DNA of 54,090 nucleotides from assembly GCA_002256025.1 (NCBI GenBank), contig NKIB01013649.1, positions 1 to 54,090 of the forward strand. The letters are read 5' to 3'. This stretch comes from Asterionella formosa. Lineage: Eukaryota. The notes beneath the pieces are model-generated. The model saw only the letters and a program-made list of their open reading frames with translations, did not search any database and was not told the DNA's origin. The translations under genes were made by a program, and so were the position numbers. This document shows, piece after piece, positions 5,789 through 26,265 of this stretch (its first letter is position 1; each line of letters starts with the position of its first letter).

Positions 5789-5999
5789 TAGTTAAGAGGA
5801 ATAGTGTATGATTTTATGCAGTTACAATGTTCAAATGAATTTTTGCTGTTCCATTTTTAATCCAAACACAGTTCCAGTACATTACCTAATACTCCCTCAC
5901 AAAATACACCTAGACTACTAGTACATACCGTATGTACACTGGTGAGACATGTATCATCGTGGTACCAGCTGCAATACCAGCATATCGCTCTCAGTGTGA

Positions 6000-6991
6000 G
6001 GGCCGTTCTTATCATTTTTTTTCGTGTATCACGGAATTTAAATTTTTTTGAAAATGTATCAGCAACGGTAACTCGATTTGAACTGAATTTCATTCATTCC
6101 AAAAGTGTCACTGTATCACTAATTTGTGATCACAGTGTATCATGGAGTAACAAGGATTGTCAACGGTGACAGGCCAGCTACGAGCATCTAGATATATATG
6201 AGCAGTAATATGCATATGCGTAGCTTAAATAAAAATAACAACCGGAATAAAAAACAAATATCATATCATCTTACGGAGCCTGTGCGGTACATGCTACAAC
6301 CCCTGGTACCAGGTATTGAGAGACTCGTCAACACATTGACCATGTCGATAATCAGCTATTTCTCCATCAAAATGGCAAAGGAGTCGCTGCGCTTTTGCGG
6401 TCTAAGATATCATTGTACGAACGATGCAATAGAAAAGGAAATATAGATATATCTTTAAAATTGCATAAGAAATTACGAATCAACAATGTAGAAGAGGAAC
6501 ATTCGTCATTTTATATGATTGCAAACAGAACTATTGATTTGTTATGGCAACGACTAAAGCTATGACTGCTAATACGACTACAATAATACTATTATATGAC
6601 AAAAGTGCTTGCAAAAAGTGGTGTTAGGTTAGTCTTTGTGTTATAGACGCCATTAGATCAATCGATTGCACCAGTGGCGTTTTCAAGTTGCGCTGTGTTG
6701 CTGATGTTGATTTTCCCATCCACAAAATAGATTATATAGTTGGCGCTGGCATGTCTACAGTTATTTTATCAGTGGCAACGGACGTGATACACAGTGATCA
6801 ACGGCTTGATCAGTGATACAGCATTGGTCAGGGGTCCAAAAACTGTATCAGTGATACACCCATGATACACCGGTGATCAGACCAAAAAAACCGTTGGTGA
6901 TACACAAAAAAAAACCAAACCGCCATTTTTGTATCATATTTCGGCGATGATACACCAATGACAACAAATAACAGAATGATAAGAACGGCCC
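6000..6991. mobile_element. PIF/Harbinger-type (Tourist-like) non-autonomous element, 992 bp
   Basis: 17-bp perfect TIRs GGGCCGTTCTTATCATT / AATGATAAGAACGGCCC, 3-bp TSD TGA (5997-99, 6992-94), many subterminal GTGTATCA/TGATACAC motifs, no transposase. Confidence 0.85.
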
Positions 6992-7359
6992 TGAGTGATA
7001 TGCTGATGATGTGATGCTCGATTTCGACATCAAGCATTACATCCAAGCTGATTCTGGATTCCGTTTCTCCATATACTCGTGTGTAGAATTTGTAGTATGT
7101 AGATGGCTGGTACAAACGGAACACACCGACCTCAGTGTCCGGTAAAATGGTTGTGCAACTCAACATGATCCCATCCTCCTCCCCCAGCATGCTGCATCCG
7201 TGATAACCGATGGTTCCCTCCCCACCATGACGTTTTGGACGGCTGGTATTAATTCATAAGAATAATTTATATTTAATAATTGTTCGCTATGTACCGCCCA
7301 CTCCATATTATGTACCGCCGGTAGTATGTACAGTGGGAATACACGCACAATACAATAAA

Positions 7360-9531
7360 ATGCTACTCCAACAAACAGCTCCCAACATCATTCTTTCCTC
7401 CTCATTAGCATCCTGTTCCAAATGTAGGTGTCTATTCCTGCTACTACTACCGGTACTCTGGTGTCAGCCATCCATTGGTTTTGATATTGTTATTGTAAGA
7501 ACACCAACAACGACGAAGCCAAGGAGGTATTCAGCATCAGTATCATCATGTCGTTCTACAACTACTGGTACTGGTAGAACACCTAGAACTACCGGCTTTA
7601 CATCAATTACTACTACTACCATGAGGATGATAGACAGTTCGAATTGCTATGCCGGCATGTTTGATCCATTAAATAGGATAATGCCATTATCAACATCACT
7701 AAATCAAACATTGGATCAAACATTGGATACCATACGATTCAACTATGAAACAAAAGCTCCAGCGGAAATCATCAAAAGTTTGGCACAATATGGATACCAG
7801 TATTCATTTGTGGCTAACAATATTGCGGAAACAACTACTACAACATTTGATACTACCGACAATAACAACAAACAACAAATAGATGGTCCACTCCTGATTG
7901 ATCATTCCTACTTGTACTACTCGTCATCTGTGCTACAACGCGTTCCTGGATGTGTTGCCAATGTTAACATTCAAACAACGTTGATACAACAACAACAATA
8001 TGACAAGGAAAACCCGCAAATGGTGCTTTATGTAAATGGCACATCCGATGCCATTCTTAGTCGAGGCTTGTTGGCACTATTGGCTCATGTGATGCAGGGA
8101 ACATATGCTCAAGACATTCTACAACTTGTTCCTGAAACTATGGCAGATCGACTGGGATTACGGGTGGCACTTTCTAAGGGGCGAAATGATGGTTTGGCAA
8201 GTATGATGAGATTGATACAATCACAAATTAGAGAATTGTTGGTGTCAATGGCAGTGGGAGTGGTGAATTCAATGGACAATACTACTACCAATGCAACGAA
8301 TAATAAAGAGTATTCACTAGTACAAAAACAAGACAAGAAGAAACCAACGGTTGCCATGTTACTTTCGGGTGGCGTCGACTCGGCCGTGGCACTGAATATA
8401 CTTGCATCACAAGGCTACCATGTCACTGCGTTTTATCTGAAAATTTGGTTAGAAGATGAACTAGCTCATCTTGGAACGTGCCCATGGGAAGACGATTACA
8501 ACGTGTGCGTTGAAATTTGTCAACAAGCCAATGTACCATTAGAATCGATTTCCTTGCAACAGGAATACAAAGACAAGGTCATTTCGTATACCATTGCACA
8601 AGCGCAAAAAGGACGTACTCCCAATCCAGATATCATGTGCAATTCGAGAATTAAATTTGGGTGTTTTTATGATGCCATTCAAACAAGAGGATTCGATTTC
8701 GTGGCATCAGGACATTATGCGCAAGTGAATCAGACAAGTGATGATACAGCCACAATGACAACTCGATTGCTTCGAGCACCCGATCCCATTAAAGATCAAT
8801 CGTATTTCTTATGCGCGCTCTCGCAGCAACAACTACAACGTGTTTTGTTTCCGATTGGACATTTGGAAAAACATGCTGTTCGGCAATTGGCAGAGGAGTA
8901 TAATTTACCCAACAAGAATCGACCTGATTCGCAAGGTTTGTGTTTCCTTGGCAAGGTCAAATTTGAAGATTTCTTAGCAGCGTATTTGGGAGAATCACCA
9001 GGAAACATTATTGATGCACAAACAGGAATGATCATTGGTAGACACAAGGGTTTATGGTTTCACACCGTGGGACAACGAAAGGGCATTGGAAAAGTACTCG
9101 ACCCCAAGGCGACAGCACGAGGTCCATGGTATGTTGTCGCCAAGGATCCAAAGCATCAAATTGTGTACGCGTCAAATGAGTACGATGAACAAGCATTCGC
9201 CCAGGCCAGGTCAGATGTGTTTGTGGAAGACATTCACTGGATTTCGGGATCACCTCCTGCATCTTTAGTTGATGGTCCAGCTAGATTTGACATGAAGATT
9301 CGACATGGACCTAGGCTTGTAACAGGATCATTGGAACTGTTGGACGATGGCGTAGCCAATGTGAAACTGGACCAGAAAGATGGTGGACTAGCACCAGGTC
9401 AGTATGTGGTATTTTACGAACCAGACGGAATCGAATGCTATGGTGGTGGAGTCATTAGTGAGCGACACTGGGCTCGGTTTCTATTTGATCAAAATAAACT
9501 TGCACCATCATCAATTAACATAAACAATTAA
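7360..9531 (+). CDS. mnmA: tRNA-specific 2-thiouridylase MnmA with fused N-terminal SufE-like domain, probably plastid-targeted
   Basis: MnmA motifs SGGVDS (PP-loop), TPNPDIMCN, ASGHYA, KDQSYFL, DSQGLCF, TVGQRKG, APGQ. SufE motifs RVPGCVANV, GTSDAILSRGL, LSKGRNDGLASM. Hydrophobic signal ending SIG-F, then an S/T/R-rich transit-like segment. First ATG at 7360. Confidence 0.92.
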   Translation: MLLQQTAPNIILSSSLASCSKCRCLFLLLLPVLWCQPSIGFDIVIVRTPTTTKPRRYSASVSSCRSTTTGTGRTPRTTGFTSITTTTMRMIDSSNCYAGMFDPLNRIMPLSTSLNQTLDQTLDTIRFNYETKAPAEIIKSLAQYGYQYSFVANNIAETTTTTFDTTDNNNKQQIDGPLLIDHSYLYYSSSVLQRVPGCVANVNIQTTLIQQQQYDKENPQMVLYVNGTSDAILSRGLLALLAHVMQGTYAQDILQLVPETMADRLGLRVALSKGRNDGLASMMRLIQSQIRELLVSMAVGVVNSMDNTTTNATNNKEYSLVQKQDKKKPTVAMLLSGGVDSAVALNILASQGYHVTAFYLKIWLEDELAHLGTCPWEDDYNVCVEICQQANVPLESISLQQEYKDKVISYTIAQAQKGRTPNPDIMCNSRIKFGCFYDAIQTRGFDFVASGHYAQVNQTSDDTATMTTRLLRAPDPIKDQSYFLCALSQQQLQRVLFPIGHLEKHAVRQLAEEYNLPNKNRPDSQGLCFLGKVKFEDFLAAYLGESPGNIIDAQTGMIIGRHKGLWFHTVGQRKGIGKVLDPKATARGPWYVVAKDPKHQIVYASNEYDEQAFAQARSDVFVEDIHWISGSPPASLVDGPARFDMKIRHGPRLVTGSLELLDDGVANVKLDQKDGGLAPGQYVVFYEPDGIECYGGGVISERHWARFLFDQNKLAPSSININN

Positions 9532-19860: not shown

Positions 19861-20719
19861 TGATGTCTCATCAAAGAGAACAACACGACGTCCCCATCTA
19901 TGTAGGATCTAACGTGGGATTCCTGAGTTGTTTCCTATTAATTCGCACTCTGCCTTACAAGTACTTGAATTGATGACTCCTGTGTTTCATACACATATAA
20001 AACCATTCATGATACTATCGTCACCCGTGACTATTGTTAAATTATGCTACAATATAAATTCCATGTTTTTAGACTACATTTATTTACCATCATTAATAAT
20101 AGTATTCGTCTCTCCAGCACTTTTTGATTTCAGTGAATGGTTCGTTCACGTCTAGTATGTCTTGATTAGGCGAATCGGTATCAGATATAGGTAGTACCTG
20201 GTACTATGGAACATGATACTGGTACAACGACCAGGTGTACCAATAGACAGTATGTAGGCGACAAAATAGTACTTCCCTAATGAACGTGCAGGCCAAGACT
20301 TTCAAGACGTGCGTGAGAAATACCTAGGCATATTACCAGGTACCGAATGCACATTCTGCCAAGATTTACAAGATGTTCGTGAGAGAACCCCACTTTTTTC
20401 ACACCAGGAGACAGCAGTCATGGATTTCAATACTCGACTTGCTCGTACGTTCTGTACGAAGAATCTTTGGAGCTCTCATTTCTGTGTTCGGTTTGATCTA
20501 CTTCAACAAAGAAGAACATAGCCAGCACTACGAGAAGCCGGGCATCAGTTGCAATCCTCCACGAGGACACCTCGTGGAGACAGTACTAGGAGTTCTTTGC
20601 TTCTCATTCGCAAACAAACCATTATTATTTTCATTTTGTTTTGTCTCATAAAACAAATTTCCTTCACTTGTAACAGTCAAGTTCTATAGCTACACTAAAA
20701 AAGAAAATCATCATCCAAC

Positions 20720-21700
20720 ATGAAGATCACGGCTGCTACTTTTCTCGTCCCAATCCTCCTTCTCGTGAAATACGGCCCTTCTGCGGCCCAAGAGGAAGAA
20801 CACTCCATTCGTGGCCTCAAGTCGCCACCCGCTCCAGCGCCTTACACAGTTACTTTTGATCAGTCACTCACAAACCCTGGTGTGTACTGGGGAGACGGTA
20901 ATGGGGGTGATTTTTGGACAGTTGGTATCAGTAGCACTAACAATGTCAATGGAAGGAAACTCAAGATTGGTCTGCGTGGCCATAAACGTTACCGAGCAGT
21001 ATACCCTCAGTTGAACCTACATGGTGATTACATTTTCAACGTGGGCACAGGATTTAAACAAGATGGCACCACCCCCACAGGATTGCCCGAGTGGAGCTTT
21101 GACTATATGTTTGATTCCGATGTTAATTGTCCCAGCAACATCACCACCTGCACATCCCTTGCGACATATGCGTATGAAGTGGCAATGGATGTAGATCCGA
21201 CCATCAAGACTAAGTGGATTAAGTACGATCCAATCAACCAGGACTGCTATGACCATGGGCTCGGGAACACTGCCACTGTCAATGGCAACGCAACCACCAA
21301 GGTCGAGCTTGATTGCAATGTACCCGCAAGTGCAGGAATATACCAGGCTGCGATTAATGGTGGAACATGGCATGTGGCACAGAATTCCTTCAACTACGGC
21401 TTCATCGTGAATTTTGCTCCTGATCACTGGGGAGGATTTGCGGCAAATAATCCTCTTGTCTACACTGAAGGCATCTACGACGTTGTGCTTTCCATCAAGA
21501 ACAAGAAAACGGGAAAGGTATTGGTCAAGACGTCTATTCGCTTCCTTGTCAAGAACGATTCCAAGTGCACTATTCGAGGAAAGTGCTTCCCAACTGTTGC
21601 GGCCGACTGCAACAAGTCCAACATTGGCAAATTCAACATGTTCTTCAACAACAAGGATACCAAGGCATGTGAGGATTTTGTCGCTGGCATCAAGCAGTAA
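20720..21700 (+). CDS. Secreted 326-aa protein, paralog A, with bacterial-like extracellular beta domain and Cys-rich tail
   Basis: Intronless ORF with signal peptide (..PSAA-Q), RGL motif, core motifs KIGLRG, WSFDY, DVDP, DPIN, DH, VAQNSFN, and a four-Cys C-terminal module. Confidence 0.9.
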   Translation: MKITAATFLVPILLLVKYGPSAAQEEEHSIRGLKSPPAPAPYTVTFDQSLTNPGVYWGDGNGGDFWTVGISSTNNVNGRKLKIGLRGHKRYRAVYPQLNLHGDYIFNVGTGFKQDGTTPTGLPEWSFDYMFDSDVNCPSNITTCTSLATYAYEVAMDVDPTIKTKWIKYDPINQDCYDHGLGNTATVNGNATTKVELDCNVPASAGIYQAAINGGTWHVAQNSFNYGFIVNFAPDHWGGFAANNPLVYTEGIYDVVLSIKNKKTGKVLVKTSIRFLVKNDSKCTIRGKCFPTVAADCNKSNIGKFNMFFNNKDTKACEDFVAGIKQ

Positions 21701-24627: not shown

Positions 24628-25284
24628 TTCTGTCACACTACATACATTACATGTTTTAGAACATATTCATTTACCATTTTTAATAATATTATTCGTCTCC
24701 ACAGCTCTTATTGATTTCATTGAATGGTTCGTTCACGTCTAGTATGTCATCATCATTAGTCGAATCGGTATCAGGTACCTGGTACTACCAGTTGTATTTA
24801 GCCGTAGGGAGTAGTCGCCTGTACCGAATGAACATGCAGCCCAAGACTTTCAAGACGTGCGAGAGAAATACCCAGGCACACTATCTGGTATAACAGGTAC
24901 CGAATGCACATGCAGCCAAGATTTGCAAGATGTGCGTGAGAGAACCCCACTTTTTCGACACCAGGAGGCAGCAGTCTTGGATTTCAATACTCGGTTTGCT
25001 CCTATGTTCTGTTGGAAGAATTTGGAGCTCTCATTTCAGTGTTCGGTGCGTTTGATCTACTTCAACAGAGACGAACGAAGCCAGCACTACGAGAAGCCCG
25101 GCATCAGTTGCAATCCTCCTCGTCAGGTACACCTCGTGGAGACAATACGAGTAGTTCTTTGCTTCTCATTCGGAAACAAACCATTATTATTTTCATTTTG
25201 TTTTCGTCTCATAAAACACATTTCCTTCACTTTTTACAGTCAGGTACTAGATACACTAACTAACGAAGAAAATCATCATCCAAC

Positions 25285-26265
25285 ATGAAGTTCACTGCTG
25301 CTACTCTTCTCGTCCCAATCCTCCTTCTGGTGAAACAAGACCATTCCGCGGCCCAAGAGGAAGAACACTCCATTCGTGGCCTCAAATCGCCACCTGCTCC
25401 AGCGCCCTACAAAGTTACTTTTGACCAGGCACTCACAAACCCTGGTGTGTACTATGGAACAGGTAATAATGTTGGTGATCCTAATACATGGACAGTTGGT
25501 ATCAGCAGCACTAAAAATGTAAATGGAAGGAAACTCAAGATTGGTCTGCGTGGCAAGAAACGTTACCAGCCCGAATACCCCCAGTTCAACCCACATGATG
25601 ATTACTACATTTTCAATGTGGGATCTGGATTGGATAACTCTCTTCCGCCCGTCTCTACAGGATTGCCCGAGTGGAGCTTTGACTATGAGTTTGATTCCGA
25701 TGTTGGATGCGCTGCCACCACTGCGACCAGTAACACCTGTAATCCCCTTGCCACATATGCGTATGAAGTGGCAATGGATGTAGATCCGACCATCAAGACA
25801 AGATGGATTACAGGCGACCCCATCAATGTGCTTTACGCTGACCATGATTTCGGGCAATCTGATACGGTTCAAGCAACCAAATATAAAGCAGGCAACCAAC
25901 CAGACTATCATACTGCAATTACTGGTGGAAAATGGCATGTGGTACAGAATTCCTTCAACTACGGCTTCTTAGCGGGGATCCCTCCTGAACACTTTAGTGG
26001 ATTTATATTGAATCGTCAACTCGTCAATACTGAAGCCATATATGACGTTGTGCTTTCCATCAAGAACAAGACAACGGGACAAGTTTTGGTCAAGACGTCT
26101 ATTCGATTCCTTGTCAAGGACCAAGAGAAGTGCAATATTCGAGGAAAGTGCTTCCCAACTGTTGCAGCCGACTGCAACAAGTCCAACATTGGCAAATTCA
26201 ACATGTTCTTTACAAGCAAAGATACCAAGGCATGTGAGGACTTTGTCAAAGGCATCAAGCAGTAA
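25285..26265 (+). CDS. Secreted 326-aa protein, paralog B
   Basis: Same architecture as 20720-21700, with near-identical termini and divergent internal loops. Confidence 0.9.
   Translation: MKFTAATLLVPILLLVKQDHSAAQEEEHSIRGLKSPPAPAPYKVTFDQALTNPGVYYGTGNNVGDPNTWTVGISSTKNVNGRKLKIGLRGKKRYQPEYPQFNPHDDYYIFNVGSGLDNSLPPVSTGLPEWSFDYEFDSDVGCAATTATSNTCNPLATYAYEVAMDVDPTIKTRWITGDPINVLYADHDFGQSDTVQATKYKAGNQPDYHTAITGGKWHVVQNSFNYGFLAGIPPEHFSGFILNRQLVNTEAIYDVVLSIKNKTTGQVLVKTSIRFLVKDQEKCNIRGKCFPTVAADCNKSNIGKFNMFFTSKDTKACEDFVKGIKQ

Follow-up and report, generated by a model that had tools for sequence, protein, structure and literature searches.

How is sulfur delivered to U34 of tRNA in a plastid? The question is raised by a gene of the diatom Asterionella formosa, located at positions 7360..9531 (+) of the 54,090-nucleotide stretch of DNA that we analysed (contig NKIB01013649.1 of assembly GCA_002256025.1; hereafter the window), whose predicted product joins a domain with the fold of the sulfur carrier SufE to the tRNA 2-thiouridylase MnmA. 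An initial annotation had proposed that SufS passes sulfur to the fused SufE domain and on to MnmA, replacing the Tus relay, and had left open whether such an architecture had been reported. It has been: Yang et al. 2022 list 519-589 of Toxoplasma MnmA (TGGT1_309110) as a SufE domain (PMC9420914), and Swift et al. 2023 described five apicomplexan MnmAs that carry a SufE-like domain and proposed the same relay from SufS through SufE to MnmA (PMC10219651). Both the architecture and the relay idea are thus already published for apicomplexans, and what we add is the algal range. The word 'diatom' occurs 0 times in the main text of PMC10219651, and the term 'SufE-like' is absent from the accessible text of its preprint version. 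The algal SUF survey PMC8003979 names SUFE1-3 only, with 0 occurrences of 'tRNA' in its main text, and the accessible text of PMC12803347 makes no mention of MnmA. Our literature search, which covered few subscription papers, returned no report of the fusion in diatoms or red algae. Here we describe the architecture of the A. formosa protein, its presence in RNA libraries, the conservation of its residues, its distribution and its partner genes.

A SufE-fold domain and MnmA in one reading frame

The gene is a single exon. Its intron-free open reading frame (ORF) of 723 amino acids (aa) at 7360-9531 (+) has no internal stop, as had been noted before, and the frame is open from 7231. RNA evidence comes from contigs of RNA libraries, for which four of 13 listed runs were examined. 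In three of these four runs, from two studies, one contig starts no later than the SufE domain and reaches almost to the stop codon: X1 spans 7159-9497 with 0 differences and 0 gaps, X2 runs from 7258 to beyond 9800, and X4 covers 7751-9510. The X7 run is fragmented, and one of its pieces bridges 8195-8437. Continuity across the domain junction (8200-8400), a check that the initial annotation had suggested, is therefore found, and no splice joint across 7360-9531 is listed in the examined contigs. The contigs represent one unspliced unit; they do not address its level or its transcript ends. A poly-Gln run in the SufE domain (7980-7995) differs in length between strains, with 6-base insertions in X2 and X4 and a longer run in P0002.

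The low-complexity linker between the two domains could suggest that two adjacent genes were read as one, or that the assembly joined them. This explanation is refuted by the spanning RNA contigs, which cross both domains without joints, and by the fused homologues. A search with the SufE region returned 86 long proteins, 85 of which carry both Pfam domains on one chain, and SufE is present in 119 of the best 120 matches of a second profile, a query that favours fused proteins. We consider the probability of such an artefact to be practically nil.

The SufE domain is recognised by Pfam (PF02657) at residues 193-288, which form the SufE core (7936..8223, +), with an E-value of 9.2e-16 and 58.2 bits against a cut-off of 27. 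Together with the MnmA matches described below, this places both domains above cut-off on one chain. The fold begins before the Pfam match: AlphaFold predicts helices at residues 118-130 and 134-147 with a pLDDT (predicted local distance difference test) of 86-94, which would correspond to helices 1 and 2 of the SufE fold (residues 118-147; 7711..7800, +), a red-algal profile covers residues 9-138 of Escherichia coli SufE, and G145 is kept in 127 of 140 rows. They are followed by a low-complexity loop of ~36 aa inside SufE (7807..7914, +), in which residues 152-179, before the Cys loop, have a pLDDT below 50. The AlphaFold model of the whole protein (mean pLDDT 74, predicted template modelling score, pTM, 0.57) matches the SufE/CsdE structures 3g0m, 5eep and 1mzg in Foldseek with a target TM score of 0.67-0.72 (0.72 for 3g0m and 5eep). 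The enterobacterial equivalog models failed (PRK09296, 30.4 against 160; TIGR03391, 31.1 against 136.4), and by these scores the fused domain is a SufE-fold domain that is not an equivalog of enterobacterial SufE or CsdE. An ESM Atlas query with residues 105-460 returned only MnmA fragments below 0.9.

The motifs singled out by the initial annotation, VPGC with C198 and SDA..RG with D230, are both present. Counted along the 3g0m alignment, C198 (7951-7953), D230 (8047-8049) and R275 (8182-8184; all +) map to C51, D74 and R119 of SufE. In the E. coli SufS-SufE structure, SufE touches SufS in four regions, which are marked by W20, C51, D74 and R119; universal conservation within the SufE fold is limited to C51 and R119 (PMC11408855). 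Three of these four contact markers are kept in the fused domain. In an alignment of 147 sequences, hand-picked from the fused hits and leaving out barrel-bearing, truncated and piroplasm rows, the only invariant columns of the SufE region are C198, D230, G236 and R275, with C198 and R275 each present in 147/147. Among 142 fused proteins, the acceptor Cys is found in 118 of 118 aligned rows and, by motif, in 22 more, the remaining two being truncated; in a further 101 proteins it is found in 95 aligned rows and by motif in two, and four short N-termini have no assignment. It is also kept in all 26 rows beyond the main diatom set, whose SufE cores are 15-41% identical to that of the window protein.

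A flexible low-complexity linker (residues ~306-328; 8275..8343, +), with a pLDDT below 50 at 306-324, connects the two domains, in agreement with the initial annotation. Across 239 proteins the distance from the SufE Arg to the PP-loop ranges from 40 to 170 aa, with a median of 57.

The MnmA part (residues 330-699; 8347..9456, +) is of the D-type and complete, including its PRC-barrel and beta-barrel domains, as assigned by Pfam, NCBIfam and Foldseek. Pfam domains PF03054, PF20259 and PF20258 match at residues 330-532, 536-604 and 620-699, and both equivalog models score above cut-off (TIGR00420, 366.8 bits against 236.95, covering 2-351 of 351 model positions; PRK00143, 348.6 bits against 284). 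The structures 2hma (E 5e-76; Foldseek target TM 0.88) and 2det were matched. All three motifs claimed earlier are there: the PP-loop SGGVDS (S336-S341; 8365-8382, +), DIMC (residues 424-427) and GLCF with C528. Together with C374, the D424xxC427 and C528 residues make up the C-DxxC-C motif by which D-type MnmA is defined, as opposed to CC-CxxC-C (PMC7025502). DxxC is present in 162/162 fused proteins and in 101/101 further proteins, and CxxC in none. Since cyanobacterial MnmAs are C-type (PMC7025502), the putative plastid enzyme is not of the cyanobacterial type. With the bacterial D-type enzymes of E. coli and Bacillus subtilis it shares the PP-loop, the C-DxxC-C motif and the three-domain fold; those enzymes, however, have no fused carrier and are supplied by IscS-TusA-TusBCD-TusE and by YrvO, respectively.

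The protein begins with a signal-peptide-like segment (residues 1-40; 7360..7479, +), for which a hydropathy scan and inspection indicate a hydrophobic core at about residues 24-35 and a cut after SIG, before F (40/41). Residues 41-111 (7480..7692, +) resemble a transit peptide: they are rich in Thr, Ser and Arg, contain 3 Asp and no Glu in 70 residues, and are predicted to be disordered, residues 1-111 having a pLDDT below 50. The signal plus transit-like leader with SIG-F that had been described is thus visible on inspection. Diatom plastid leaders consist of a signal peptide followed by an aromatic residue at the cleavage site, and a crude rule (hydrophobic stretch plus small-x-small-[FWYL]) is passed by 26 of 49 full-length diatom-clade homologues. 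From the leader, from the location of the apicomplexan orthologues in the apicoplast (PMC10219651, PMC9420914) and from the presence in the genome of a second MnmA outside the plastid clade, we infer that the window protein is targeted to the plastid. A mitochondrial or dual location, with the SufE domain paired with another desulfurase, might be suggested by the length of the signal segment (40 aa), which was judged by inspection, and by the dual targeting of plant SufE1 (PMC5890173). We regard it as very unlikely, given that signal-plus-F leaders recur among the diatom homologues, that the orthologues sit in the apicoplast, and that the second MnmA is itself a candidate for the mitochondrial enzyme.

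Distribution and ancestry of the fusion

The fusion occurs in red algae, diatoms, Parmales, brown algae, haptophytes, chromerids and piroplasms. The named proteins in the SufE-region search are diatoms. A whole-library profile search (best 150 of 20,135 matches, 30 of them named) added Triparma, Porphyridium, Agarophyton, Cyanidiococcus and Galdieria, as well as Chromera, Babesia and Theileria, and the second profile added Gracilaria, Gracilariopsis, Cyanidium, Rhodosorus, Purpureofilum, Ectocarpus, Discosporangium, Prymnesium and Vitrella. The survey across ochrophytes and apicomplexans that had been called for thus found the fusion in diatoms, Parmales, brown algae and piroplasms; no cryptophyte, glaucophyte or dinoflagellate is among the named matches of these searches. 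Five records of ~1150 aa (P0348, P0352, P0357, P0369 and P0373) have a SET domain in front, and the signal-like stretch of P0348 lies in mid-chain, which suggests a gene-model merge with an upstream gene.

In a tree of the MnmA domain (41 rows, LG+C20), all 22 red-lineage rows, with three piroplasms, form one clade (87/98, unstarred), and the green rows form a separate one (100/99). A FastTree analysis of 134 rows gives a 42-row red clade (89) with the piroplasms apart; we read that placement as long-branch attraction, because the mixture-model tree puts the piroplasms inside the red clade. The MnmAs of Chromera and Vitrella group with a brown alga and two further rows (91/87), and the piroplasms lie elsewhere on a long branch; this is a single-gene observation and a weak one. 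The green-lineage plastid MnmAs (for example Vaccinium P0145), which form a sister or near-sister clade, share the same subtype (YLKIW...CPWEED), but in place of SufE they have a short conserved motif with a Cys, close before the PP-loop: the SufE profile matches none of 29 green-type MnmA rows, 24 of which have a leader of at least 30 aa.

The window MnmA groups with the green-plastid enzymes and with those of the Babeliales/Dependentiae/Spirochaete type, apart from the E. coli type. The closest bacterial MnmAs (~50% identity) belong to Babeliales/Dependentiae, Peribacteria, Oligoflexales and Spirochaetia, and all are unfused. A profile that had no positive control detected no SufE-like ORF at 80 mnmA loci of bacteria; about eight of the 80 have a desulfurase-like ORF by a loose motif, and none of these is among the 19 closest. 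That the fused SufE arose as a duplicate of the plastid SufE is unsupported by the red-algal SufE profile, which scores enterobacterial SufE at 64-73 bits and the SufE of the A. formosa genome at 33 + 21 bits over two exon ORFs. The SufE region of Porphyridium, used as a query, retrieved only itself among 846 candidates.

The simplest reading of this distribution is that the fusion originated once, at the base of the red lineage, although it may instead have been lost in greens. The architecture is a shared character of red-lineage plastids. The apicoplast MnmAs of Toxoplasma, Plasmodium falciparum, Babesia, Theileria and Eimeria have the same order of leader, SufE or SufE-like domain and D-type MnmA, and the piroplasm orthologues are those found in the clade of the window protein. 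The apicoplast proteins are larger (1084 aa in P. falciparum and ~1600 aa in Toxoplasma, against 723 aa in the diatom), and, compared with these two by their published description, the diatom SufE is plainly detectable by sequence, with the equivalents of C51, D74 and R119 intact. Plant SufE3 (SufE-NadA) and SufE1 (SufE-BolA) are likewise plastid SufE proteins fused to a partner; the partner differs, being a tRNA thiouridylase in the diatom.

A possible route of sulfur from SufS to U34

The genome contains putative partners of a sulfur relay. A SufS scores above cut-off and has a signal-like leader, and a stand-alone SufE of two exons (G000:C12442; L002, L003) has a signal-like leader and, by eye, a BolA-like C-terminal part, as in the SufE1 type. 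TusE/DsrC, TusA and TusD were not found in the genome, whose assembly may be incomplete; the E. coli control was positive each time. Since the window MnmA is not of the E. coli type and TusBCD/TusE are not widely conserved (PMC7025502), this lineage may never have had a Tus relay. Of the route proposed in the initial annotation, the path through SufE fits the conservation pattern and the gene content and had already been published, and the replacement of the Tus relay is not borne out.

For the chemistry of SufE and of MnmA, and for the coupling of SufS to MnmA in the apicoplast, we draw on the literature. In the relay that we envisage, the protein would be a tRNA 2-thiouridylase that is encoded in the nucleus, imported into the plastid and equipped with a sulfur carrier of its own. 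Plastid SufS would desulfurate cysteine and load the persulfide onto C198, and the SufE domain would swing on its flexible linker and bring the sulfur to the MnmA site at every turnover. There it would take one of two forms: a C528 persulfide, or sulfide attached to the free iron of a [4Fe-4S] cluster bound by D424, C427 and C528. MnmA would adenylate U34 of plastid tRNA-Lys, -Glu and -Gln and then form 2-thiouridine (s2U34). The separate SufE-BolA would serve SufBCD, so that the fusion would give tRNA thiolation its own branch from a single SufS. To this built-in persulfide relay, from SufS to C198 to MnmA in each turnover, we give an even chance.

Two published results are in line with such a relay. 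In Plasmodium, deletion of sufS or mnmA destroys the apicoplast and deletion of the stand-alone sufE does not (PMC10219651), as would be expected if MnmA carries its own SufE; the fusion thus offers a simple explanation of why the Plasmodium apicoplast survives the loss of stand-alone SufE but not that of SufS. In plants, the SufE domain of SufE3 activates NFS2 and is required by the fused NadA partner (PMC5890173).

Several points weigh against the relay. The 147-sequence alignment has no conserved equivalent of W20 in helix 2, and the homologue sets were gathered with fused queries, which favours fused, Cys-keeping matches. In the Theileria orientalis and Babesia microti clusters, the proteins keep the Cys, but they have no equivalent of the Asp, show no aligned Arg motif and give no Pfam SufE match. 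The green plastid MnmAs do without SufE, and so does P0139 (423 aa), a single record on a long branch inside the diatom/Parmales clade that consists of a signal-like leader and MnmA; it possibly reflects loss of the SufE domain, or a paralogue. In Plasmodium, the loss of mnmA was rescued by B. subtilis MnmA, which has no SufE domain, in one of four attempts, with no significant difference in growth of the rescued parasites, and by an MnmA-YrvO fusion in all attempts (PMC10219651), so that SufS can feed an unfused MnmA. SufS of Thermus thermophilus feeds its C-type MnmA directly in vitro (PMC7025502). It should also be noted that the passage of sulfur through the fused domain is itself something that we infer, from conserved residues. 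A complex prediction for the SufE part (113-298) and the MnmA part (326-715), for which the alignment was unused, scored 0.01 against a mark of 0.34 and is uninformative either way.

The uniform DxxC, with no CxxC, among the fused proteins also fits a different role, in which the SufE domain would supply sulfur in situ to build or repair a labile [4Fe-4S] cluster on D424, C427 and C528, and not at every turnover. In the D-type MnmA of E. coli, Asp99, Cys102 and Cys199 can bind a [4Fe-4S] cluster (PMC8053098), clusters of this kind of MnmA are labile (PMC13066941), and a similar supply has been proposed for SufE3 and NadA (PMC5890173; PMC8003979). Moreover, Plasmodium apicoplasts survive the loss of SufC, SufD and SufE (PMC10219651), and a cluster-dependent MnmA would then need a private route. 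However, the same result is simpler with a cluster-free persulfide enzyme, the need of D-type MnmA for a cluster in vivo is disputed (PMC11784392; PMC7025502), and no iron source is built into the protein. We consider cluster supply rather unlikely.

Less likely still, in our judgement, is that the SufE domain mainly tethers or activates SufS beside MnmA, or serves the SUF scaffold in trans, as an additional general SufE. SufE does stimulate SufS, ~17-fold for the Plasmodium pair (PMC10219651), sulfur is transferred directly from the desulfurase to MnmA in B. subtilis and T. thermophilus (PMC11784392; PMC7025502), and the length of the linker is variable. Yet a domain that was only a tether could do without an invariant Cys, although an activator that unloads the persulfide could not, and in Plasmodium the fused domain does not replace the stand-alone SufE, which stays essential (PMC10219651).

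The persulfide relay through C198 remains our preferred scheme, and that it is required and that the fusion arose only once we consider, taken together, to fall just short of an even chance. Swift et al. did not succeed in making expression plasmids from the AT-rich gene of the parasite (PMC10219651). The compact algal orthologue would offer a tractable system of two proteins, SufS and SufE-MnmA, in which to study the relay and the disputed question of persulfide versus cluster in D-type MnmA.

A barrel insert, an upstream cysteine and other features of the window

Many diatom homologues carry an insert of ~165 aa between helix 2 of SufE and the Cys loop, at the site of the 7807..7914 loop of the window protein. 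It is present in 31 of the 86 first-search proteins and in 33 of the 162 fused ones, among them P0003 (~93-258), P0007, P0019, P0028 (Chaetoceros), P0064 (Attheya) and others, and 21 insert-bearing proteins were used to build a barrel profile. The insert is predicted, with confidence, to fold into one strand, then two helices and then a series of strands, and Foldseek matches it to intestinal fatty-acid-binding protein (FABP) and ileal bile-acid-binding proteins (E ~1e-4, target TM 0.67-0.75, 10-17% identity); FABP clusters of the Atlas are matched by structure with a TM of 0.69-0.72. Pfam is silent on the insert, and the insert-bearing profile found no FABP by sequence in the PDB. The assignment to the FABP/calycin fold is thus a prediction from modelled structure. 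In the literature searched, we saw no report of such an insertion in homologues from diatoms.

The window protein lacks the barrel but is nested among carriers in a FastTree analysis (supports 100 and 93), which points to loss of the barrel in this lineage. The barrel profile detects no remnant in the loop at 7807-7914, and one query, without a positive control, found none elsewhere in the genome. Long inserts at the same SufE site are also seen in P0107/P0229 (Triparma) and P0116. The Triparma insert was rejected as a homologue of the barrel, its hhalign score of 14.75 lying within the 7.8-15.1 of 30 shuffles.

In all 24 green MnmAs with a leader (P0137, P0143, P0145, P0155 and others), a Cys precedes the PP-loop by 6-32 residues, often with Glu-Pro after it; such a Cys is present in 16 of 187 fused controls. 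That it serves as an alternative sulfur acceptor is a guess. One may combine these elements into a larger picture, in which an obligate relay, built on a non-cyanobacterial MnmA, became fixed a single time in the ancestor of red algae and was passed on to all red secondary plastids, the fused domain being a fourth class of plastid SufE missed by algal SUF inventories; green plastids might use the short N-terminal Cys motif instead, and the diatom barrel, lost in the lineage of the window, could make plastid tRNA thiolation sensitive to a lipid, or another hydrophobic ligand, bound in it. As a whole, we consider this combination improbable.

None of the neighbouring ORFs in the window (a glycosyltransferase-like protein, an SDR, an inositol-phosphate kinase and a poly(A)-polymerase-head protein) has an apparent connection with sulfur or with the thiolation of tRNA. 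Upstream of the gene, inverted repeats of 23 nucleotides (91%) at 5999-6021 and 6970-6992, with short subterminal repeats, delimit what looks like a 1-kb element of the miniature inverted-repeat transposable element (MITE) type (5999-6992). A dispersed repeat at 7060-7165 ends ~195 bases upstream of the ATG; it has at least 40 other copies of 90-99% identity, and RNA contigs from other loci match it. Two similar ORFs of 333 aa, at 20699-21700 and 25264-26265, have signal-like N-termini and form a tandem duplicate, the former having no Pfam match.

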